Under the pieces are notes generated by a model. It did not search any database and was not told where the DNA came from. It worked only from the letters and a program-made list of their open reading frames with translations. A DNA stretch of 61,126 nt, filler included. It is 8 parts of 8 records of this genome, joined end to end, with 100 filler letters (N's around TTAATTAATTAA, not from the genome) between each part and the next. Parts side by side here need not be neighbours in the genome. Positions count along the whole stretch, not along the records: positions 33,453 to 43,862 come from SRR31147125_16192; 7 more parts are not named here. One strand, given 5' to 3'. The position numbers and the translations under genes are program-made. Positions 1,379 to 55,588 of this stretch are shown here, piece after piece; position 1 is the first letter of the stretch; each line of letters opens with the position of its first letter.

Positions 1379-2426
1379 ATCAAAAGTTATAGGAATAGCA
1401 ATCTTTATTATAATAATACTGATTGGCGGGTATTTATATTTTGGACCTAAAACGCAAGTTACAGAAATAACAGGCTATGTTGGAGGAGAAAAGATACCGC
1501 TTTTAAAGGATGAACAAGTAATAAAGATACTAAAAAACGAATACGGCATTGAGATAGATTATGTAAAAGCTGGCTCAATAGAGATGGCAAGAGAAGATGT
1601 TAGCCACATGGATTTTATATTTCCTTCAAGCCAAATTGCGTACGAGATATTTAAAGACGAAAATGCAACCCATATAAAGAATTCGGATATCATATTGAAT
1701 TCGCCGATTGTTCTTTATAGTTGGAAAGAAGTTGCAGATGCGTTGGTGAGCCAAGGGATAGCAACGCAAAGAGATGGGATTTATTATGATGTGGACATGC
1801 AAAAGCTGGTTTCTCTTATCGCTAGCCAAAAGGGCTGGAGTGACATTGGACTTGACTTATATGGCAATATAAAAGTAATATGTACAGACCCATTAAAATC
1901 CAACTCTGGTAATATGTATTTGGGACTTTTAGCGAATTCGCTTTGTGGAGATGTGGCTACACTTGAGGATTTAGATACGCATATGCCAACCATAAAAAGA
2001 ATATTCGATGATCTTGGTTTTATGGAATCATCATCAGGAACGCTTTTTGATAGATACATAGTTAGAGGCATTGGTGATAGCCCAATTATTGCAGGCTATG
2101 AATCTCAGATGATTGACTTTGCAATAAATAACCCTGATAAATGGGAAGTGATAAACGATTCTGTTGCGATTATTTATCCAACACCAACTGTTTGGAGTGA
2201 ACATCCATTTATAGCACTAACGGATGCAGGAAAAACTACAATGGATGCACTTTTTGATGAGGAATTGCAAAGAATAGCTACAAATGAGTACGGTTTTAGA
2301 ACACTTTATCCAAGTGATATACAAAAAATTCCGCAAGGAATTGTATATTATGATATTATAGACCAAACGATGCCAATGCCAAAATCACAGGTGATGGAAA
2401 AACTTATGGAAGGGTTGGACGAATAG
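1371..2426 (+). CDS. membrane-anchored substrate-binding-type protein of TelA/vWA clusters
   Basis: N-terminal TM; GYVGGEK, AGSIEM, SPIVLYSW, TDPLKSNSG, YPTPTVWSEHP motifs. Confidence 0.7.
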   Translation: MNKSKVIGIAIFIIIILIGGYLYFGPKTQVTEITGYVGGEKIPLLKDEQVIKILKNEYGIEIDYVKAGSIEMAREDVSHMDFIFPSSQIAYEIFKDENATHIKNSDIILNSPIVLYSWKEVADALVSQGIATQRDGIYYDVDMQKLVSLIASQKGWSDIGLDLYGNIKVICTDPLKSNSGNMYLGLLANSLCGDVATLEDLDTHMPTIKRIFDDLGFMESSSGTLFDRYIVRGIGDSPIIAGYESQMIDFAINNPDKWEVINDSVAIIYPTPTVWSEHPFIALTDAGKTTMDALFDEELQRIATNEYGFRTLYPSDIQKIPQGIVYYDIIDQTMPMPKSQVMEKLMEGLDE

Positions 2427-2561
2427 AGCGATGCATTTATTTGAGTAGAGTTTGCAATAAAAGATTTGGAAAAAGATAGATGGTTATTGATTAGTTAAAC
2501 TAATACTGGTTTTGGAGACTTTAAAGTATTAATATAGAGAAATAATATAAGGAGAAATAAT

Positions 2562-3635
2562 ATGAGTGAAGCAGTTTTAAATTTAGGTGAGATGGTAGAA
2601 TATTCAAAACTTGAACCAAAAGACATTGAAAAGATCGATAAGATTGCAAACCAAATCGATATTTTTGATTCTCAATCGGTTATTGAGTATGGTTATGGTG
2701 CTCAAAGCGAGATTGCTGATTTTTCTGATACGGTTTTAAATCAGATAAGGGCAAAGGATACTGGATATGTTGGAGACATATTGACTAATCTTATGGTTAA
2801 GGTAAAGGATGTAGATGTTAATGGTCTTTCTAAGCAACAAGGGTTTTTTGGTAAGATGTTTGCAAATGCTTCGAAACAAGTAACAAGATTCACAAGCAAA
2901 TATTCTAAAGTAAGCGTTGATATCGATAAAATTGTCGATAACTTAGAACAAACTAAGATGGGACTTTTAAAAGATATCACTTTGCTTGATAACTTATATG
3001 ATAAAAACTTAGACTATATGAAAGAGCTTGAATACTATATATATGCTGGTGATAAAAAGGTAAAAGAGATTGACGAAGTAATAATCCCTGCGGCGCAAAA
3101 AAAAGCTGAAGAAACCAATGCTCCTGATGATGCACAAAGAGTAAAAGATTTGGCTGATCTTAAAACTAAATTTGAAAAGAAAATTCATGATTTAAAATTA
3201 TCCAGAACAATATCTATTCAATCTTGTCCTCAAATAAGGCTTGTTCAAAAAAATGATGAACAGTTGGTCGACAAAATTCAAAGCTCAATAGTAAATACAA
3301 TTCCACTATGGAAAAATCAGATTGTTATTGCTATTTCTATTATGAAGCAAAGAAACGCTCTTGAGCTTCAAAAAGAAGTAACGAATACAACAAATGAGCT
3401 TTTGCAACAGAATTCAGAAATGTTAATGCAAGGTACAATCGAAACTGCTCAAGAATCTGAAAGAGGGATTGTTGACCTTGAGACACTACAAAAGGTTAAT
3501 GAAGATTTAATTACAACAATTGAAGAGACACTAAGGATTCAAAAAGAGGGTAAAGCAAAACGTATGGAAGCAGAAAAAGAACTTACAGTAATGGAAAATC
3601 AATTGAAGAAAAAGTTGATTGAATCAAAGGCATAG
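2562..3635 (+). CDS. toxic anion resistance protein, TelA/KlaA (YaaN) family
   Basis: YGYGAQ, PQIRLVQ, NTIPLWKNQ, ERGIVDLETL motifs; AAGGAG RBS. Confidence 0.92.
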   Translation: MSEAVLNLGEMVEYSKLEPKDIEKIDKIANQIDIFDSQSVIEYGYGAQSEIADFSDTVLNQIRAKDTGYVGDILTNLMVKVKDVDVNGLSKQQGFFGKMFANASKQVTRFTSKYSKVSVDIDKIVDNLEQTKMGLLKDITLLDNLYDKNLDYMKELEYYIYAGDKKVKEIDEVIIPAAQKKAEETNAPDDAQRVKDLADLKTKFEKKIHDLKLSRTISIQSCPQIRLVQKNDEQLVDKIQSSIVNTIPLWKNQIVIAISIMKQRNALELQKEVTNTTNELLQQNSEMLMQGTIETAQESERGIVDLETLQKVNEDLITTIEETLRIQKEGKAKRMEAEKELTVMENQLKKKLIESKA

Positions 3636-3663
3636 GGATAAAAAAGTAATTATAAACATAAGT

Positions 3664-3690
3664 AAGGCACAGATTAATATCTAGTGCCTT
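3664..3690. terminator. probable bidirectional intrinsic terminator
   Basis: AAGGCAC-AGAT...ATCT-A-GTGCCTT hairpin between convergent genes. Confidence 0.6.
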
Positions 3691-3712
3691 TATTATGTAA
3701 AATATAAACGGA

Positions 3713-5314
3713 CTATTTTGCAATGAACTCTTTATAATAATCAAGTAAAACCATTTCTGCATTTCGTGCGAAAATTGAGTTTTGGATATTTACCTGAAAA
3801 ACATCATGTGTTAAAAAGCGTTCTTCAACTAGCTCGATTATTTTTTGCTTCTCTTTAATAAAATCTTGTGATGTATACATGTTTGTTGCAGAAAAGTAAT
3901 AGACAATATCATTTAACTGTTCCTGACTTAGTGCATCTTTATACTCAAAATAAAAATCCTTAGCCGCGTTACTTGCATCTTTAAAATTATACGTACTTAA
4001 AATTTTAGTTTCAATTTCGCCAGTCTGTTCATACCTTTTTACATTAAGCTTAAAACTTAGGCTTTGTATATTTATAAAGGTAAGTGTACCCCAAAAGATA
4101 CTGCTTACATACAATAAAACAAGCCAAAATTTAAAATCATTTTTAAATATTTTAGTAGCCAGTAAGCTAAGGACGAGTAATTGAAAAATGATATATACAT
4201 ATACTAAAATCCTTTTTTCAGTAAATCCAAATTCGTTTTGGTATAAAAACATTTTATAAAAACTTACAATTAACATATACAGGTTTACCATATTAAAATA
4301 CATCATTAATACTTTTAGTGTTTTGTTATTTTGATTACTGCTATTATAAAAAACCATGCAGCTAAGTATTATAATGATATTGATTGCTGAAAGCCATACC
4401 ATCTCAAAAAAACCGCTTCTCGCATATTCGGAGTAACTCATATCAATTGAATCCCAATTCATATTAGTTATAAAAAGATAGTTTACTTGCGTAAAAATAA
4501 ATAAAAGATAAGCAGCTCCAATGATGCTCAAGATAGTAATTATAATAACTTTGTTTATTTGAGGGATGTTAACTGTTTTTTCCGTATTGTAATTTTTTAC
4601 AAGTCCAGTATAAATAAATCCGAAACCGCACATGGTAAAAAACACACCTAAAATTATTTTCCATAACGTACTGCTTATTTCAATATCAGTAGTATAATCT
4701 AAAAGATTTTTAATGGAGCCTTTAAAGAATATATCTGCATCGCTCATTATTGGTAAGATAATTAAAAGTGCAAAAATAGCAATAGCAACACCAACTAATA
4801 CGCTTAAAATGTTCTTATACTTTACTGACTTATTGTTCCTAGCCAAAGATACAGCATTATATATTTGCCCTAGATTAGCTAAAAATGCGAAGTGCTGACC
4901 TATATATCTTTTAATGTTTGGTTTTTCTTTTTTAGAAAAAAGAACAAGCGTTACAAAAAGAGTAGGGTAAACAAGAGATGTTAAAACTGAATAATACATT
5001 ATTGTGGTTCTAAAATATACCGAAGTAAAAATGATAATGATTATTGACCAAAATATAAGATTTTTCTTATCGTATTCTTTGGATCTTATTATCAAAATAT
5101 CAATCAATATTAGACCCACAAGCAATGCTAGAAATAGATTTAGTAGACTATACCCAGCGGTTATAGCAAAGCTGTAGATAAAACCAAAGACTACAGAGCT
5201 GATTACGGCGAACATCATATTTTTTTCTTTCAAAAACACACCTCTAGTAAGCTGAAGTCTTATTTTTTCTTTGCGCAAATTCTTTCTATCGGTAGTTTCC
5301 ATTACATCATTCAT
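3713..5314 (-). CDS. DUF4153/DUF4173 polytopic membrane protein
   Basis: Many TM helices with YSEYARSGFFEM and EFGFTEKRI motifs; start set at ATG 5314 (GAGGAGG RBS, overlapping the 3' end of the HTH gene). Confidence 0.8.
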   Translation of the reverse strand: MNDVMETTDRKNLRKEKIRLQLTRGVFLKEKNMMFAVISSVVFGFIYSFAITAGYSLLNLFLALLVGLILIDILIIRSKEYDKKNLIFWSIIIIIFTSVYFRTTIMYYSVLTSLVYPTLFVTLVLFSKKEKPNIKRYIGQHFAFLANLGQIYNAVSLARNNKSVKYKNILSVLVGVAIAIFALLIILPIMSDADIFFKGSIKNLLDYTTDIEISSTLWKIILGVFFTMCGFGFIYTGLVKNYNTEKTVNIPQINKVIIITILSIIGAAYLLFIFTQVNYLFITNMNWDSIDMSYSEYARSGFFEMVWLSAINIIIILSCMVFYNSSNQNNKTLKVLMMYFNMVNLYMLIVSFYKMFLYQNEFGFTEKRILVYVYIIFQLLVLSLLATKIFKNDFKFWLVLLYVSSIFWGTLTFINIQSLSFKLNVKRYEQTGEIETKILSTYNFKDASNAAKDFYFEYKDALSQEQLNDIVYYFSATNMYTSQDFIKEKQKIIELVEERFLTHDVFQVNIQNSIFARNAEMVLLDYYKEFIAK

Positions 5315-5519
5315 GTGTATCCTCCTCATATTCCAAGATGTCTCCTGGTTGGCATTCAAGTGCTTTGCATATTTTGTTTAGGGTAGAAAACCGTATAGCC
5401 TTAGCTTTTGAGTTTTTTAAGATCGAGAGATTAGCATTTGATAAACCAATTTTTTCAGCCAATTCGCCAGATTTAATTTTTCTCTTCGCCATCATTACAT
5501 CTAAATTAATAATAATCAT
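5307..5519 (-). CDS. Cro/C1-type HTH regulator (YozG-like)
   Basis: MIIINLDVMMAKRK...KAIRFSTL...CQPGDILEY signature. Confidence 0.92.
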   Translation of the reverse strand: MIIINLDVMMAKRKIKSGELAEKIGLSNANLSILKNSKAKAIRFSTLNKICKALECQPGDILEYEEDTHE

Positions 5520-5527
5520 AAAATCAC

Positions 5528-5983
5528 CTATACTGTTAAGTCGATATCCTGTTTGTATAAAACAGCCTGTTTAAAAACATCGGCTAGTACAAAACAAAAT
5601 ACGATCAATATTAGTGAGGCAAAGAGTACAACAAAAGTCATAATTGTAAACAGCATAATCATTTTATAGATTAAAGCAACAACAACTCCCATCATAACAA
5701 AAGCCATAATTCTTAGTGACTTTACATTTTTATGTGTAAATGGATCTTTTTTAACAAGCGATTTAAAAATCTTTCTAAGTTCGTTTTCTACAAAAAAGCC
5801 ACATATACCAATAGGGTATAGAGTTATAAGTAATATGTTTTTAACCTGTTTATATGGGTTTACACCTATATACCAGTCCAGTAAATAAGGCAGTGTAAAT
5901 AAGGATATAAGCGTTATAACCATAAGCAGCAACAATAAAACATTCATAAAATTTGATATTGAATACTTTCCAATAACTTTCAT
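5528..5983 (-). CDS. DUF2975 membrane protein
   Basis: 4 TM segments, DPFTHKNVKSLR and C-terminal DIDLTV; GGAGG RBS; canonical partner of YozG-like HTH. Confidence 0.85.
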   Translation of the reverse strand: MKVIGKYSISNFMNVLLLLLMVITLISLFTLPYLLDWYIGVNPYKQVKNILLITLYPIGICGFFVENELRKIFKSLVKKDPFTHKNVKSLRIMAFVMMGVVVALIYKMIMLFTIMTFVVLFASLILIVFCFVLADVFKQAVLYKQDIDLTV

Positions 5984-6016
5984 TTAATTTTACCTCCAAG
6001 TTGTTTTTATGATTAG

Positions 6017-6045
6017 AGTATAATACTGGAAATACTATTTGTCAA
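6017..6045 (-). promoter_or_regulatory. sigma70-type promoter of the DUF2975-HTH-DUF4153 operon
   Basis: TTGACA-N17-TATACT on minus strand ~35 nt upstream of the start codon. Confidence 0.7.
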
Positions 6046-6053
6046 TATAAATT

Positions 6054-6068
6054 TATCGAATATCGATA
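6054..6068. promoter_or_regulatory. palindromic operator candidate
   Basis: TATCG-AATAT-CGATA just upstream of the -35 box; weaker copy at 6075-6090. Confidence 0.45.
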
Positions 6069-6227
6069 TATTTATATCGCAAAAGCGAAATTAGATTTAA
6101 GGAAGAAAGATTATTAAATAGAATGTTTAATAAAAACACCACACAGCTTCAAAATTATTGAACTGCATGGTGCATTTGTAAAACCAAATTTGATACCGGT
6201 ATTAATTTGTATATTCAATGTATGGTT

Positions 6228-7850
6228 TTATGAGTTTAACGATCTTAGTGATTTATCTTTTGTTGTTATAATAATCCATATAATAAAGTATATATAGCCT
6301 GCAATGTATATTGGGTTATAATACATAAAAAACGTGTCGGGTGAGGTTAAAAACACCAAGAAAGCTTGTCCCATATATGCAACGCATGATAAAAACCAAA
6401 CGTAGTTTTTTCTTATCAACGTCATGATGCCTACAAAAAGAATTAGAACAATGCTTGGTATGATGTTATAAAAAATCCTAAATATAATACTAGGCGTTAA
6501 GTCTTTGTTTACACCTTCTATAAACCTTACAAAGTTATATCTAAACTCTCTATCTATTGGTTTAGATAGAGGATAAAATGTTGTGATATGATTATATCCT
6601 TCTTCCGAGTCGCCATTGATCTTTCCTGGTACCCCTACATTTATTTCTATTTCATCAGTCATAGCAGATGTTACTTCAAAATTTTCTATACGTTCTTGAA
6701 GAAAAATAGGAAGATTGTTTAAAATTAGTTTTAGGCTCGCTATTCTAAACGCTGAAAACTCGTCGTCTGTATAAACCAAGCTTGATCTTGTAATATCTGC
6801 TTTAAAATAAGCGTCAATACCGCTATAGCCACTGTTAACTAACTTTTCAATATCAATTATCTTATCTATATCTTCAAAATATTTTATTTCTTTCTCGTCA
6901 GGATGATCATATTTTTCAATAATGATGCCACCGACTTGTTGAATACTACCAGTAATCTGATACCTATTTTTTAAATGAGTATTTTCCATACCGATGCTTT
7001 GAGGAAAATAAATCATCAACAAGAATATCAAACAGCTAATATAATAATGGCGTTTAACTTTTTTGTCCTTTTGATGATGCGTAGCGATAAGAAATGTTAA
7101 AGGAATCATAACAATAAAAATCATGCATTCGGCTCTCCAAAGCATTGCGATTGCTGATAAGAAAGCTAAAACGATTGCTTTACTATTGCTAATTGTGCTT
7201 TTGTTTAGGTATATAAAAATAAGTTGTAAGAAAACATATAGAATTATATATGAAAGCAACGAAGCCCTTATAGGACAAAGGTTAAAATCTATAACAGAAA
7301 AAAATACAAATGGAATATATATAAGATAAGTTACATTGGATTTTCCAACATACTTATATAAAGTGTACCAGATATCCGCTAGAATCAATGAGATCAATAA
7401 GTTTTGAACAATAAGCACACCAGCAGGGAAAGGAATAAGCATCATTGACAGCGTATAATATACAGTTGTTAAAAGGTGCTGCCAATAGAATACTCCCATA
7501 TATCTTGATTGGATAGCAACTCCAACGTCATCAGAACGCCAAACACCAGGCCATGATAGAATAAGAAATACCATCATAAAGCCAAAATAAGCTAAGAAAG
7601 TATAAAACTTTTTTCTGAAATCTTTATTTTGTTTAATTTTTTTAACTAGTATAGGCACGTATTGCCAAAAAATAAGTAAAACAATAAAAAGCAAAAATTT
7701 ATATCCCAATACTTTTGCAATAATCCTCTTTGAATGAAGCTGATTATAATACCTAAATGCAAAATTATCGTTGATAAAAGTTAAAAGCGTATGGATAATA
7801 GCTATCAGTACATACTTTTTATTGAGTTTTCTATAAAATTCTACAAACAT
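6228..7850 (-). CDS. polytopic membrane protein, probable GT-C-type glycosyltransferase (DUF6020-like)
   Basis: ~12 TM segments with first-loop WPGVWRSDD motif and a large external loop; last gene of glycosylation operon; start at ATG 7850 after GAGGT. Confidence 0.55.
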   Translation of the reverse strand: MFVEFYRKLNKKYVLIAIIHTLLTFINDNFAFRYYNQLHSKRIIAKVLGYKFLLFIVLLIFWQYVPILVKKIKQNKDFRKKFYTFLAYFGFMMVFLILSWPGVWRSDDVGVAIQSRYMGVFYWQHLLTTVYYTLSMMLIPFPAGVLIVQNLLISLILADIWYTLYKYVGKSNVTYLIYIPFVFFSVIDFNLCPIRASLLSYIILYVFLQLIFIYLNKSTISNSKAIVLAFLSAIAMLWRAECMIFIVMIPLTFLIATHHQKDKKVKRHYYISCLIFLLMIYFPQSIGMENTHLKNRYQITGSIQQVGGIIIEKYDHPDEKEIKYFEDIDKIIDIEKLVNSGYSGIDAYFKADITRSSLVYTDDEFSAFRIASLKLILNNLPIFLQERIENFEVTSAMTDEIEINVGVPGKINGDSEEGYNHITTFYPLSKPIDREFRYNFVRFIEGVNKDLTPSIIFRIFYNIIPSIVLILFVGIMTLIRKNYVWFLSCVAYMGQAFLVFLTSPDTFFMYYNPIYIAGYIYFIIWIIITTKDKSLRSLNS

Positions 7851-7860
7851 CACTGACCTC

Positions 7861-8588
7861 TTATAAATCAATAGTTTTCCCTTTAAATTCATCTAGCTCA
7901 TTTGGTGTTCCAAGCACATGAACTTTGTCCTGTTTTACATCAGAAATATATATTTCCATTCCTTTACTTATCATATAATTATACATAGGAGCTATATATT
8001 TTTCGTTTTTCTCATTATTGCTTTCGTCAAAGTAATACTCGTTATAAACATCTTCGTAAAGCTTTGCAGATTTAAAATAGTACGCACCAAGCGTGCAATT
8101 TTCAGAAACCCTAACTTTTTCTCTAACTTCAATTGCTTTTCCATCGTTACCAAGTTTAACAAAGCTCCAATGATCTCCTTCGCCTTTAAAGCAAGGAATA
8201 AACCATCGCCTTTTAAATCGCAATATTTCATTTGATTAGGATATACAAAAGTGTCTATATTGTATATAAGAAGCTCTTCGTTTTGGTTCCAACAATCTTT
8301 TGCAAGCATTGCGGTTGTAGCTTGACCATCTGTAAGATAATCTATCTCTATTACCTCGATGTTTTTGATTCCTAATTTTTCAAGCTCGGAAGTTATAAAG
8401 TCTTTAGAATCATCTTCTGACCTTACGATAAATATATATTTATTCGCCTTTTCTTTATAGCCTTCAAGGCTCAACATAGACCATGTGAATAAAGTCTTAT
8501 TATGAGCAATAATCATATGTTTAGGCTTGTTATAACCTGCTTTTTTGAATCTAGAACCAAGCCCGGCCATTGTTATAAGTATATTCAT
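7861..8588 (-). CDS. sugar nucleotidyltransferase-like protein (BcbE-like), split by a 1-nt deletion at ~8200-8202
   Basis: ITMAGLGSRF...KPK N-terminus in one frame; FIPCF-GDHWSF...EKYIAPMYN...LGTP in the next; restoring one T in GGT-TT(T)-ATT fuses them. Confidence 0.8.
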
Positions 8589-11885: not shown

Positions 11886-11985
11886 NNNNNNNNNNNNNNN
11901 NNNNNNNNNNNNNNNNNNNNNNNNNNNNNTTAATTAATTAANNNNNNNNNNNNNNNNNNNNNNNNNNNNNNNNNNNNNNNNNNNN
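11886..11985. other. artificial contig spacer
   Basis: N44-TTAATTAATTAA-N44; composition changes across it. Confidence 0.97.
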
Positions 11986-21538: not shown

Positions 21539-21638
21539 NNNNNNNNNNNNNNNNNNNNNNNNNNNNNNNNNNNNNNNNNNNNTTAATTAATTAANNNNNN
21601 NNNNNNNNNNNNNNNNNNNNNNNNNNNNNNNNNNNNNN
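21539..21638. other. artificial contig spacer
   Basis: N44-TTAATTAATTAA-N44. Confidence 0.97.
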
Positions 21639-28024: not shown

Positions 28025-28124
28025 NNNNNNNNNNNNNNNNNNNNNNNNNNNNNNNNNNNNNNNNNNNNTTAATTAATTAANNNNNNNNNNNNNNNNNNNN
28101 NNNNNNNNNNNNNNNNNNNNNNNN
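28025..28124. other. artificial contig spacer
   Basis: N44-TTAATTAATTAA-N44. Confidence 0.97.
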
Positions 28125-33352: not shown

Positions 33353-33452
33353 NNNNNNNNNNNNNNNNNNNNNNNNNNNNNNNNNNNNNNNNNNNNTTAA
33401 TTAATTAANNNNNNNNNNNNNNNNNNNNNNNNNNNNNNNNNNNNNNNNNNNN
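33353..33452. other. artificial contig spacer
   Basis: N44-TTAATTAATTAA-N44. Confidence 0.97.
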
Positions 33453-33482
33453 CTGTTGTCTAAGTTCTGGGGTATATTATAA

Positions 33483-33920
33483 CAAGGTGCTAGAACCTTT
33501 GCTAATACTAATGATTGTTGAAATCCGACATACGAAAACGGTAAGAACAGTTTGCTAGATTTTCGGGGTGCTTCTGCTGAAAGAATTATAGAATCGAGTG
33601 GAAGCATACAGCTTAATTATACTGGTCTAAGTACCGATAGTGAAACCATAACTGTTACGCCTTCTTCTATGACTGTTTCAGCAAGTTTAGTTGATTCTGG
33701 TGATGGTATTTTTTGTTCAATTTCTTCTGATGGTTCTAATTATTCAACTTCTTTGAGTTCTGTTAGTGCTGATAGTTCCGGTGATTGGACTTTATACGCT
33801 AAAGCAGCAAAGTTTGATAATACTAGCGGTAATAGAACAATGAAGATTAGATTAGTAGATGATAGTAACAGTTCAAATACGTTAGATGTAAACGTATCAC
33901 AAATGACTGCACCAACATAA
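33483..33920 (+). CDS. Ser/Thr-rich phage-like protein, probably extending upstream through TGA 33519-33521; true start not resolved
   Basis: ORF 33552-33920 has only a TTG start; frame extends as QGARTFANTNDC-[TGA]-NPTYENGKNSLLDFRG; in-frame TAA at 33480 near the contig edge. Confidence 0.55.
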
Positions 33921-33934
33921 GCAAACCTTACAAA

Positions 33935-34210
33935 ATGAATATTGATTCAAATAAATTATTTGACACGTTTTTTAGACTTGCACCGTTAATAATAGCTATT
34001 CTTATTTATTGATTTGGAGTAGTTAAAAACAACGAAAACACCAGAACAGAGCTAGTAAACGTAAAAGCACAAATTGAAATATTAAATGCTAAATGTGAAA
34101 AACTGGAAGATAAGAAAGCAGACCTTTACACTATTGAGATTATTATGAACACACTTGATAGAATTGATAACAAGATTGATAAATTACAGGAACAAATAAA
34201 CGATAAATAA
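33935..34210 (+). CDS. 91-aa single-TM plus coiled-coil protein (holin/spanin-like), TGA at codon 26 read as Trp
   Basis: MNIDSNKLFDTFFRLAPLIIAILIY-[TGA 34010-34012]-FGVVKNNENTRTELVNVKAQIEILNAKCEKLEDKKADLYTIEIIMNTLDRIDNKIDKLQEQINDK-TAA; AAAATG start 14 nt after previous stop. Confidence 0.75.
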
Positions 34211-34211
34211 A

Positions 34212-34520
34212 ATGGAAATTAATAAGACAGGATATGAACAAATAAAAAAGTCAGGGTATAAAACGCACTCTGAAAATGGTAATCACTATTACAATTGAGA
34301 AGATGGAGCAGCCCCAAATGGTAAATATTACGGTTTTATAGTAACAGGTGAAAATGTTGTTATAGATTCTATAACTTATTTAGACCCTACACTGCATACA
34401 GGCGACATTAAAAACATAACGATGCTTTATGGATTGTATATCCCAATTTCAGGCGGATTTTCTACAATAACTTTATCAAGCGGTAATTTGATTTTACTAA
34501 AGGATATTGACGTACTATAA
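34212..34520 (+). CDS. 102-aa phage-like hypothetical protein, TGA at codon 29 read as Trp
   Basis: MEINKTGYEQIKKSGYKTHSENGNHYYN-[TGA 34296-34298]-EDGAAPNGKYYGFIVTGENVVIDSITYLDPTLHTGDIKNITMLYGLYIPISGGFSTITLSSGNLILLKDIDVL-TAA; starts 1 nt after previous stop. Confidence 0.75.
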
Positions 34521-34526
34521 AATTAG

Positions 34527-34559
34527 AAGGTGCTAAGACTTAGTTTTAGTGCCTTTTTT
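34527..34559 (+). terminator. intrinsic terminator of the phage-like operon
   Basis: AAGGTGCTAAGAC / GTTTTAGTGCCTT 13-bp stem whose three G-U pairs only work on the + strand, then T-tract, 6 nt after TAA 34520. Confidence 0.8.
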
Positions 34560-34661
34560 AGTGTTATATGTTAAGCAGAGAGAAGAAGGTACTTAATACT
34601 TCAAATAAATTTGATTTCTATTCAGTTCATATTCAGGTTGTTAAATAATAACATTTGAAAA

Positions 34662-34681
34662 GGTGTTTATATATACGCACC
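34662..34681. other. candidate attachment (attL/attR) site
   Basis: Imperfect palindrome GGTGTTTATATATACGCACC (16/20 symmetric) exactly at the premature stop of the host beta-propeller gene. Confidence 0.6.
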
Positions 34682-35692
34682 GCCGCGTTTTATACTCCAA
34701 ACAATATGCTCATTCGAGGTTTCTTTTTCACCAAGTGTGATATCGCCCCGGGCATCAGTTTTTACCGCATAAATGGGTGAATATGTGCCGTGGGCATTGT
34801 TTATGAAAATCAGGTCGTGAGCTATAACAGGAGTTGGTGTTGGTACGTCTCCACCGCCACTCATCTTCCAAATTTCCTTTCCGGTTTCAAAATCGTATCC
34901 GCCCATGTGGTGCCAGCCATTTACAACAATCTGCATTTTCCCGTCTTTTTCAAATACGGTTGGCGAACTCCATGTCGATACATCTTCACGGGGAGTTTTC
35001 CATATCTCCTCTCCGGTTTTAATATCGTACGCAGCAATAAAACAATCGCCTAAAAAGTCGCACTGTACAATTACTTTTTCATTATGAATAATTGGCGAGC
35101 TTGAAAATCCCCATTCCAATTCGGGAGCATTATACGGGCCGGCATTCATTTTGCCAAAATCTTTGGTCCAAAGTAATTCTCCGTTCATGTTGTAACAAAA
35201 CAATCCCTGCGAGCCGAAAAAGGCAACCAGATATTTTCCATCGGTTGCCGGAGTTCCGTCGGCGTGCGATGCTTTTGTGTGGCGTTTTACTTCAGGTACA
35301 CTTTTCGTGGCCAGTTTTTCCCAAAGAATTTCGCCTGTATTTTTATCGAGGCAAAATACCTTAAATTCATGAATTGATTCATCTTCAACAGCATCGCCGT
35401 CGCCGTATAATCCAACTTTCAGGTAGTCGTTTCCGGTTCCGCTAATGGCTGTTGTTATAAACATTTTATCTTCCCAAATTACCGGAGAAGAATGTCCAAG
35501 CCCGGGAATAGAAGTTTGCCATAAAATATTCTCCCCGCTTTCAATATCCCACTCGCTCACGGTTTTGGCATCTTCAACAAAACCTTTGGCAAATGGGCCA
35601 CGAAAAGATGGCCACTGTTTTAAATAATTGGTTTGAGCTGATAATTGAAAGCAGAATAAAAGTGATAGGATTAATGGAAATAGATTTTTCAT
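34667..35692 (-). pseudogene. PQQ-binding-like (BamB-type) beta-propeller protein, apparently C-terminally truncated
   Basis: Signal peptide, WPSFRGP, HSSPVIW, TGEILW/TGEEIW/TGKEIW repeats; ends abruptly at WSIKRGGAYI at the start of a blade. Confidence 0.75.
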
Positions 35693-35850
35693 TGCTGTTA
35701 TGATTATGGCTCTTAAAGATAGGCAATTAGGAAGAAATTATCACCGTAAAATTGTTGTTGATGCGTAATTGCCCTTCACTACCCTTAACAGGCTTTGAGA
35801 AAATAAAAAATGGTTCATCATTTTCTTTATTGATTAGGTTATAATTTAAT

Positions 35851-35968
35851 ATCCATTGCCGTTGCGCTTTAGCCAACGGATTAAGGAAATATATCTCCCC
35901 TTCAATAATTTACGGGGCTAAAAGCCCCGCAAATTATTAACTGAATTCTCCTAATATAACGGCAAATG
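35851..35968. repeat. REP-like palindromic cluster
   Basis: CCGTTGCGCTTTAGCCAACGG hairpin and 16-bp stem AATAATTTACGGGGCT / AGCCCCGCAAATTATT (35904-35938). Confidence 0.5.
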
Positions 35969-35989
35969 ATAAACTATATTTATAGCCTA

Positions 35990-37004
35990 TTACAACGACT
36001 TACGCCGAATAAACTCAAACGGGCTTTTTATGCGTTTAAAATCTTTGGTTAAAATCATTTCGGCAGCAATTCGGCCAATTTCGTTGTGGTTGGTAGAAAT
36101 GGTTGTAATACCATCTTCCAGAATTTCTTTTACCGGATTATCGTTATAGGCAACCACTCCAACATCGGTACCTGCTTTCCAATGCTTTTCTTTGCAAATT
36201 TTTATGAAACGATAAAGATCGTCGTCGGAAATAAGTACATAGGCCTGGTTTTGTTTTACATCTGTATCTTCCAGTTGGTTAATTACCGAAAATTTCAGTT
36301 CGTTTATCTGGCAGAAAATCTGAAATCCACGCATAATGTTTTTCGAATAATATTGGCTTGTGGGAAAAACCAGGTTCAACGATTCGTATTTTCGAATATC
36401 CTCAATTCCCTCGTTTAATGCAGTTTGAATATCTTTTTCGAATTACATGGTAAACAACCGGATAATCTTTTAAAACATCGAGATTACGATCGATAAGCAA
36501 TACTTTCTCCTGGGGAATGCGCTTAATCACCTCAATTACATCAATATTTTTATCGTTAAACTGTGGAAGAATTGCGTAGTAATCGTAATTGGAAATCTGG
36601 TCATCTATTATCTCTTCAAACTTCTCGGTGCCGTAGTTGTAAATAAAAACATCTACACGGGCTTTATTTCCGAGTGTTTCAATAAACGAATAGTAGATGC
36701 TACGTTTGTAATTGCTAAGCTTGTTAAAAATAAGCGCTACTTTAATTTTCTTTCCAACATTGCTTTTATTTACGTAGTATCCTTTACCCCGAACCGACGA
36801 AAGCACACCCTTTTTCTTAAGGTAAACATAAGCCTTTTCAACCGTGTCTCTCGATAAAAAAAGTTCTTCGCTGGTTTCGTTAATGGAAGGAACACGCTGC
36901 CCTTTTTTAAAGATTCCTGCTTCAATATCAGAGAGAATCAGGTTTACAACCTGTTTGTACTTTGGTATCTCCGATTCGTGATTTATGCGAATATCTTCAT
37001 TCAT
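35990..37004 (-). CDS. GntR-family regulator with LacI-type sensor domain, frameshift near 36445
   Basis: PKYKQV, PSINE, SRDTVEKAY, GKGYY; shifted frame continues FEKDIQTAL...YNDNPVKEIL..GITTIST. Confidence 0.85.
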
Positions 37005-43862: not shown

Positions 43863-43962
43863 NNNNNNNNNNNNNNNNNNNNNNNNNNNNNNNNNNNNNN
43901 NNNNNNTTAATTAATTAANNNNNNNNNNNNNNNNNNNNNNNNNNNNNNNNNNNNNNNNNNNN
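43863..43962. other. artificial contig spacer
   Basis: N44-TTAATTAATTAA-N44. Confidence 0.97.
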
Positions 43963-49065: not shown

Positions 49066-49165
49066 NNNNNNNNNNNNNNNNNNNNNNNNNNNNNNNNNNN
49101 NNNNNNNNNTTAATTAATTAANNNNNNNNNNNNNNNNNNNNNNNNNNNNNNNNNNNNNNNNNNNN
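49066..49165. other. artificial contig spacer
   Basis: N44-TTAATTAATTAA-N44. Confidence 0.97.
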
Positions 49166-55488: not shown

Positions 55489-55588
55489 NNNNNNNNNNNN
55501 NNNNNNNNNNNNNNNNNNNNNNNNNNNNNNNNTTAATTAATTAANNNNNNNNNNNNNNNNNNNNNNNNNNNNNNNNNNNNNNNNNNNN
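55489..55588. other. artificial contig spacer
   Basis: N44-TTAATTAATTAA-N44. Confidence 0.97.

Follow-up and report, generated by a model that had tools for sequence, protein, structure and literature searches.

The question raised by this locus is why a gene for a PQQ-like beta-propeller protein, carried by what appears to be a Draconibacterium-like bacterium, ends abruptly inside a short palindrome and gives way to AT-rich DNA. A preliminary description of the stretch had read it as a hybrid attachment site (attL or attR) in which attP resembles attB, and the account below considers what the host side, the phage side, the join itself and a complete relative of the element contribute to that reading.

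The junction contig and its features

The window analysed here, a stretch of DNA of 61,126 nt, is a set of eight unrelated contigs separated by seven N44-TTAATTAATTAA-N44 spacers; it is not one molecule, the GC content of its contigs ranges from 30% to 59%, and features cannot be read across the spacer points. The junction lies in the contig at 33453-43862, of which the AT-rich element occupies 1.2 kb, and the coordinates of the features discussed are collected in Table 1.

Table 1. Features of the junction contig and of two related elements (positions count along the window unless another contig is named).
Feature	Position	Strand	Basis or remark
Phage ORF1, 3' part, Ser/Thr-rich late protein, at least 122 aa from TTG at 33552	33453..33920	(+)	table 4 ORF 33552-33920
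Phage ORF2, 91 aa, spanin-like, TGA at 34010-34012	33935..34210	(+)	homologue in G585
Phage ORF3, 102 aa, last gene of element, TGA at 34296-34298	34212..34520	(+)	34 homologues
Terminator-like hairpin, 15 pairs plus T tail, 5 nt after ORF3	34525..34557	(+)
Putative phage-derived arm at the junction (P' arm)	34558..34670	.	no Draconibacterium similarity left of 34659-34661
Imperfect palindrome, 16/20, inverted repeat I4	34662..34681	.	spans break
Interval where strand exchange would lie or start	34671..34681	.	first bases identical to intact allele
Truncated host gene: signal peptide plus first 341 of ~448 codons, PQQ-like (BamB-family) beta-propeller	34667..35692	(-)	PQQ_2, homologues, model
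Host flank	35693..41922		gene-by-gene collinear with four Draconibacterium loci (tblastx vs L001-L004)
Spacers	11886-11985, 21539-21638, 28025-28124, 33353-33452, 43863-43962, 49066-49165, 55489-55588
Complete ~24-kb TGA=Trp prophage	G585:C109 (L054 and L055), ~1,592-25,663		contig 25,881 nt
G418:C40 recombinase, 56% identical to that of G585	L058, ~3090-4330

The first 30 nt of the contig (33453-33482, ending in TAA) also occur in a 1,393-nt contig assembled from the public run X1 (depth 6.6), after which the two sequences diverge, and the start of the window contig is therefore a branch of the assembly graph. The loose-end sequence of the neighbouring contig was not found elsewhere in the window. 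It is conceivable that the Ser/Thr-rich late protein of the phage has a variable region here, beyond 33482.

On the host side, a gene for a GntR-type regulator (35990-37004, minus strand) is frameshifted near 36441-36447 in the window and is a single 338-aa ORF in L001. In the X1 assembly, an A>C difference at 36445 and the absence of 36447 bring back the reading ...VYQEFEKD...; the frameshift of the window contig reflects either a fault of assembly or variation between strains.

A split beta-propeller gene

The ORF of 341 aa on the minus strand, with its C-terminus at ...WSIKRGGAYI followed by TAA, was recovered as the preliminary description had given it, and PQQ_2 is recognised in it (2.9e-16; 60.3 bits, the cut-off being 27.6). 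In a search through 5.8 billion proteins, 7,465 of the 8,000 candidates scored were matches, and 119 of the 120 best homologues listed are 425-487 aa in length, all of them reading past ...RGGAYMQTP. The lone short homologue (P0049; 356 aa, on a 3.1-kb contig) still extends 15 residues beyond the window's stop, so that none of the proteins listed naturally ends there. The earlier expectation that intact members continue for roughly 100 residues past RGGAYMQTP is likewise borne out, since nine aligned full-length homologues read ...RGGAYMQ(T/S)PL(I/V)Y... and have ~107 residues more than the window ORF. The closest named relatives among the matches listed are Draconibacterium and Maribellus (Prolixibacteraceae), at 70-81% identity, and the 341 host codons run on uninterrupted by stop or frameshift, at 78-81% identity to relatives.

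As had also been noted, the frame beyond the stop reads T-P and then loses all propeller similarity. When a full-length homologue was compared with the window by tblastn, residues 1-345 only were covered, and the C-terminal 113 residues had no match anywhere in the window (best E-value 4.4). The downstream DNA is thus not the rest of the propeller, and the gene was not simply stopped early by a nonsense mutation while remaining complete beyond it. The same search bears on the proposal that a contig with the 3' remainder of the gene be looked for: there is none in the window. Judged against its homologues, the 341-aa "protein" is a split gene and not a naturally short one.

An AlphaFold2 model of a 448-aa homologue, built from a 35-sequence alignment (pLDDT 82.4, pTM 0.86), is all-beta with ~31 strands. 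In this model residue 341 falls in a loop between strands 330-333 and 345-347, at the border of two four-strand groups, and the window ORF would lose the last 11 strands. The cut had been called "mid-blade", a placement that the model does not bear out.

Recoded phage genes at the AT-rich end

Under translation table 4, the AT-rich end of the contig resolves into three tightly packed plus-strand ORFs followed by a terminator-like hairpin. The first, ORF1, would include a TGA in frame (33519-33521) only with a start further upstream; it has no family match and no relative in viral_contigs. ORF2 has an N-terminal hydrophobic stretch followed by a coiled coil, together with weak PHROG matches (phrog_1009, 8e-5; the Rz-like spanin phrog_739, 3.4e-4), and it is 56% identical over 89 aa to an ORF of another genome, G585:C109:1975-2283, in an alignment that crosses the TGA codon, which falls in one and the same alignment column in the two proteins. 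For ORF3, 34 homologues were recovered from 1.84 billion representatives at E<=1e-3, again with alignments that cross its TGA codon. The best of these, P0121 (4.2e-20), corresponds to G585:C109:1667-1969, the last gene of a prophage in that genome, and is 50% identical over 101 aa.

These alignments indicate that ORF2 and ORF3 of the window read through TGA codons. At the TGA column of ORF3 the homologues mostly have G, D or A beside a gap, and the column alone is not decisive; code 25 (TGA as glycine), which this column had raised, was ruled out by the terminase scores of the relative described below. The "AT-rich phage-like segment" of the preliminary description is accordingly the late-gene end of a TGA-recoded phage, but because the window is made of joined contigs it comprises only 33453-34670 of this contig.

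Searches for closer relatives of the element were largely negative. The element had no blastn match in the phage collection, ORF1, ORF3 and the ORF2 alignment found no close relative in viral_contigs, and ORF3 and the ORF2 alignment had no match in metagenome_contigs. Two ORF3 homologues from long contigs, searched in viral_contigs, were also without match. A single-protein search with ORF3 gave nothing at E<=0.001 in 401 genomes sampled from the class and a best E of 0.08 in five Draconibacterium and Maribellus genomes. The 1.2 kb of the element contains no recombinase gene, and 41 ORF translations of G585:C109, compared with the window, had no match there apart from ORF2 and ORF3.

A complete related prophage in Prolixibacteraceae

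An HMM of the ORF3 family matched four of 335 Prolixibacteraceae genomes and was strong in G585 only (9.7e-35). The best ORF3 homologue, P0121, is letter for letter the last ORF of the G585 prophage, and its source name is a hypothetical protein of Gaoshiqia sediminis (Prolixibacteraceae). The G585 contig has 28-30% GC from ~1.6 kb to ~25.7 kb, and with TGA read as tryptophan this region is a continuous minus-strand phage genome. It encodes TerL (with 8 TGA codons), portal, capsid-sized and tape-measure-sized proteins and a tail fibre with an S74 chaperone domain, and its 25 ORFs contain 57 in-frame TGA codons and 21 TGG codons. The TerL_nuclease match scores 125.3 bits with TGA as W, 105.2 with X and 102.1 with G; since W scores best, the TGA codon of the G585 prophage is taken to encode tryptophan.

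At the ends of this prophage lie, on one side, the homologues of ORF2 and ORF3 and, on the other, a gene for a large serine recombinase of 532 aa (Resolvase, Recombinase and Zn_ribbon_recom domains) with no TGA and four TGG codons. No transposase family was matched among nine of its proteins scanned against Pfam. The prophage splits the host gene tag: the part that matches positions 1-168 of the 177 in the Adenine_glyco profile adjoins the ORF3 end, and the remainder, ...AYMQATGMVNDH...*, sits ~50 nt beyond the recombinase start, so that both gene parts flank the prophage. Only ~3 nt (GCC) are common to the two junctions. Between the last gene and the junction there is, by eye, a hairpin-like sequence containing GC.

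Several other elements touch on this relative. A 23.1-kb IMG/VR provirus (G736; L073/L074) resembles the G585 prophage in TerL (69%), portal (62%) and a 358-aa capsid-sized protein (63%), and homologues of ORF2, ORF3 and the recombinase were not found in this provirus piece. In G592:C306 (L066/L068), a 6-kb AT-rich island at ~2,000-8,000 has a recombinase with 44% identity to the G585 enzyme and a homologue of a 594-aa protein of G585. It is free of structural genes and represents a small integrative element whose recombinase is of that type. The elements of G558 and G592 were set aside as having related recombinases without being the window's phage. A match in G552 (one TGA, E 2.5e-4) was dropped, as it lies in DNA of ordinary GC content.

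The recombinase of G418 (Table 1) lies ~65 nt from a split MFS_3 gene that starts at profile position 28, the first ~27 positions being missing. When placed in register with G585, both the arm on the integrase side and the host bases beside it (TATGCAGGCT) are closely similar to their counterparts there. The AT-rich element of G418 runs off the start of its contig.

The break and its palindrome

From 41922 down to 34661 the window is collinear with four Draconibacterium loci (L001-L004), and every tblastx alignment ends at 34659-34662. At the DNA level, identity with the relatives runs through GGT GCG TAT AT, after which the window has ATAAACACC and the relatives have GCAAAC(G/A)CC or GCAAAGCCC. 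Read from the host side, the window first departs from the intact allele at 34670 and 34669, and homology is gone within ~10 nt of the stop codon. It is the final bases of the putative phage arm that give the host ORF its closing codons, ATA TAA.

The 20-bp palindrome of the preliminary description stands, with 16 of its 20 positions matching its own reverse complement; its left half comes from the phage arm and its right half from the host codons G-A-Y. Equally symmetric 20-mers occur six times among 10,391 in the junction contig, and one or more of them appear in 14.5% of local 220-nt shuffles. By itself, then, the palindrome is weak evidence, and its unusual feature is its placement exactly on the break.

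The phage arm also resembles the host sequence that it displaces. After the codon GCG, the two match at 11 of 14 and 13 of 17 nt and then at 0 of 9, as counted by hand between the loose end of an X1 contig and the window strand. A longer residual homology of 34620-34666 to the next ~16 host codons was considered and left as unproven beyond ~17 nt, the six homologues tried being mixed: the real local alignments were beaten by 46 (L001), 124 (L003) and 18 (L005) of 2000 shuffles and for L002, L004 and L011 did not stand out from the shuffles. The attachment sites of large serine recombinases are typically short, with little identity between attP and attB around the point of exchange and with partial dyad symmetry.

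Evidence bearing on the physical reality of the join

The join was also looked for in public sequencing runs. In X1, 89% of the sampled words of 33453-35700 are present, and a 2,779-nt contig made by another assembler (depth 6.3) runs through the break from 33699 to 36478, with a single mismatch and a single indel; 33483-33698 of the element has no cover in this run. A second run, X2, has no cover of the region and is not evidence either way. A misassembly at 34600-34750 had been named as something to check, and the join is indeed bridged by a second assembly, but X1 may be the window's own sample and the bridging contig is thus a second assembly, possibly of the same reads, and not second data.

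A further X1 contig, 349 nt long and of depth 16.2, aligns to 34671-34703 with two differences in 33 nt; its loose end, on the other strand, reads in frame M-Q-T-P-L-V-Y-G-G-Y, which is the intact propeller allele. Reads for an empty attB had been proposed as a check; the two mismatches in 33 nt and the depth of 16.2 against 6.3 place this intact allele in another strain and not in that of the junction. The host/phage join at 34670/34671 is probably real.

A target motif shared with the related prophage

The G585 prophage resembles the window element in being AT-rich, in using TGA as tryptophan and in the order of its end, where two homologous last genes are followed by a hairpin and then by the junction. 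In both, the phage end that carries ORF3 is the one into which the 5' part of the host gene is read, and both hosts would belong to the same bacterial family. The two differ in the gene that is split (tag, near its 3' end, in G585; the propeller in the window), in the distance from last gene to junction (~65 nt in G585 and ~150 nt in the window), and in what can be seen of them, as both junctions and the integrase are known for G585 and one junction only for the window.

The targets also share sequence. For the window, the target was reconstructed from the window and the intact allele of X1, and L002 and L004 agree with it. In register at an Ala codon, G585 reads ...TGCC and then TATATGCA, and the window reads ...TGCG and then TATATGCA, such that both contain TGCSTATATGCA, a motif of 12 nt with 11 fixed bases and one C/G position. 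This motif was found twice in five related genomes (29.5 Mb), both times in unrelated places. The register was picked by the author among ~11 possible ones, and a chance coincidence nevertheless appears unlikely from the comparison.

The likeness between the P' arms of the two elements is more limited. After the Ala codon, 13 of 24 positions match in register (empirical frequency 0.007-0.014), and there is no alignment beyond 24 nt. The inverted-repeat motif of the G585 attP arms is, by reading, not in register in the window arm.

Integration model and alternative explanations

The evidence is best accommodated if 34670/34671, give or take a few unassignable bases, is the hybrid attachment site of a TGA=Trp temperate phage that entered by conservative site-specific integration, most probably through a large serine recombinase; we put the probability of this reading at about three in four. 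The hybrid site would join a host B arm to a phage P' arm and would be one of two attachment sites. The host would be a Draconibacterium-like member of the Prolixibacteraceae with the standard code, bearing the phage in its chromosome. Integration would have taken place at the short, partly palindromic TGCG-TATATGCA within codons 338-343 of the 448-codon propeller gene, with strand exchange at or right of 34671, and the P' arm would be the TATATATAAACACC arm, expected inside attP. The phage arm would place ATA TAA where the intact gene has ATG CAA, and the ORF would for that reason end at residue 341 without its last 11 beta-strands.

At the far junction, a recombinase gene without TGA would be followed by ~50 nt, by TATATGCAAAC... 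and by the last ~107 propeller codons. We infer both this second junction with its 3' gene part and an ability to excise. As the recombination would be conservative, excision would rebuild the propeller gene if the 3' part lies at the far end. By analogy with the relative, the enzyme of the window phage is most probably a large serine recombinase, although integrases are modular and the serine recombinase of G585 is therefore no proof of one here. The hybrid site first proposed holds as regards the sharp break, the bridged join and a phage arm that resembles the host at 13 of 17 nt, and it falls short as regards a second junction, an integrase, attP and the 3' remainder, none of which lies in the window.

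It is conceivable that integration did produce the junction but that the element has since become a decayed or immobile remnant, through deletion, rearrangement or loss of the 3' part, with the propeller left as a pseudogene. Only 1.2 kb of the element is seen before the contig ends at a graph branch, and G592 has the same recombinase family in a 6-kb AT-rich island and not in a full phage, both of which would suit such decay. Yet with TGA read as W the three phage ORFs have no interruption and lie close together, the uninterrupted and well-conserved host codons argue for a recent event, and the relative in G585 is complete with both gene halves present. Decay of this kind is accordingly regarded as improbable, while still being the most credible of the alternatives.

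Two further explanations would do away with an attachment site altogether. In one, the assembler fused a free phage and a Draconibacterium-like genome at a short AT-rich word present in the reads of both, and the low depth of the metagenome contig (~6x), at least one local discrepancy between the two assemblies, at 36445-36447, and the strain mixtures of X1, where the intact allele stands at depth 16.2, are all conditions under which chimeras might form. An artefact of this sort is nonetheless quite unlikely, given that the same join appears in two assemblies, that the intact allele differs already at 34670 and therefore leaves no long shared word there, and that a chimera would not be expected to reproduce the 12-nt motif and orientation of the related prophage's site. 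In the other, the insertion arose by transposition, as with a Mu-like phage, or by illegitimate recombination at a microhomology. Insertion inside a coding sequence is typical of transposable phages, and the related elements do occupy different genes (the propeller and tag), but the relative encodes a serine recombinase with no transposase family among the nine proteins scanned, the two targets have a rare 12-nt motif in common and 13 of 17 nt of the phage arm are those of the host. Phages of this kind typically have ends of the TG...CA type, and no such end was seen at the break. Transposition is regarded as the least probable of the explanations.

Comparison with known systems

Recoded prophages in hosts with the standard code, and gene-splitting prophages that restore a gene on excision, are both already known, as far as the accessible portions of the sources cited here go. 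Among the former are Garnet and Topaz, described in the available text of bioRxiv 10.1101/2021.08.26.457843 as TAG-recoded prophages of gut bacteria with the standard code, in which the integrase is free of the recoded codon and the late and lysis genes carry it; the examples aligned there to circular phages have an integrase and a tRNA gene at their boundaries. To judge from that portion of the preprint, the window and G585 elements are like these prophages in representing a recoded phage in a standard-code host, in the shift of GC at the boundary and, for G585, in an integrase free of the recoded codon. They are unlike Garnet and Topaz in the codon (TGA), the host family (Prolixibacteraceae), the large serine recombinase (of the relative) and a target inside a protein-coding gene.

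The comK prophage and the skin element both use serine recombinases. As summarized in the accessible parts of the respective reports, the Listeria comK prophage splits a gene, restores it on excision and acts as a switch (PMC7397523), and the skin element in sigK is a prophage-like, gene-splitting switch (PMC5025042). By those accounts, they resemble the window in that an element inside an ORF inactivates it and that precise site-specific excision would rebuild the gene. They differ in that reversible excision and a benefit to the host have been shown experimentally for comK and skin, and the window is known from sequence alone. Among the titles and abstracts of the literature searched, none was found on a TGA-recoded, serine-integrase prophage of Prolixibacteraceae, nor on the relative's host genus in this connection.

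Significance for recoded phages and their hosts

The junction offers sequence-level support for a TGA-recoded phage physically resident in a standard-code bacterium outside the gut. One practical consequence concerns annotation, as the AT-rich genes beside the 341-aa split gene are miscalled under table 11. The 12-nt target common to the two elements hints, moreover, at a serine integrase family with a definable specificity. The G585 prophage may prove of greater value than the window junction itself, and its strain, if in culture, would be a laboratory system for a phage of another code that is carried and induced in a standard-code cell.

Finally, a broader and still tentative proposal, for which the odds seem to lie on the unfavourable side, is that TGA=Trp temperate phages of Prolixibacteraceae form a lineage whose large serine integrases, free of TGA, target a GCNTATATGCA-like motif inside conserved genes for proteins; one member resides in a genome with a protein that a source attributes to a named species in culture. 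In such a lineage, lysogeny and excision would toggle host genes, among them the propeller gene and tag, and the reassignment of the stop codon would keep the late genes silent until induction.
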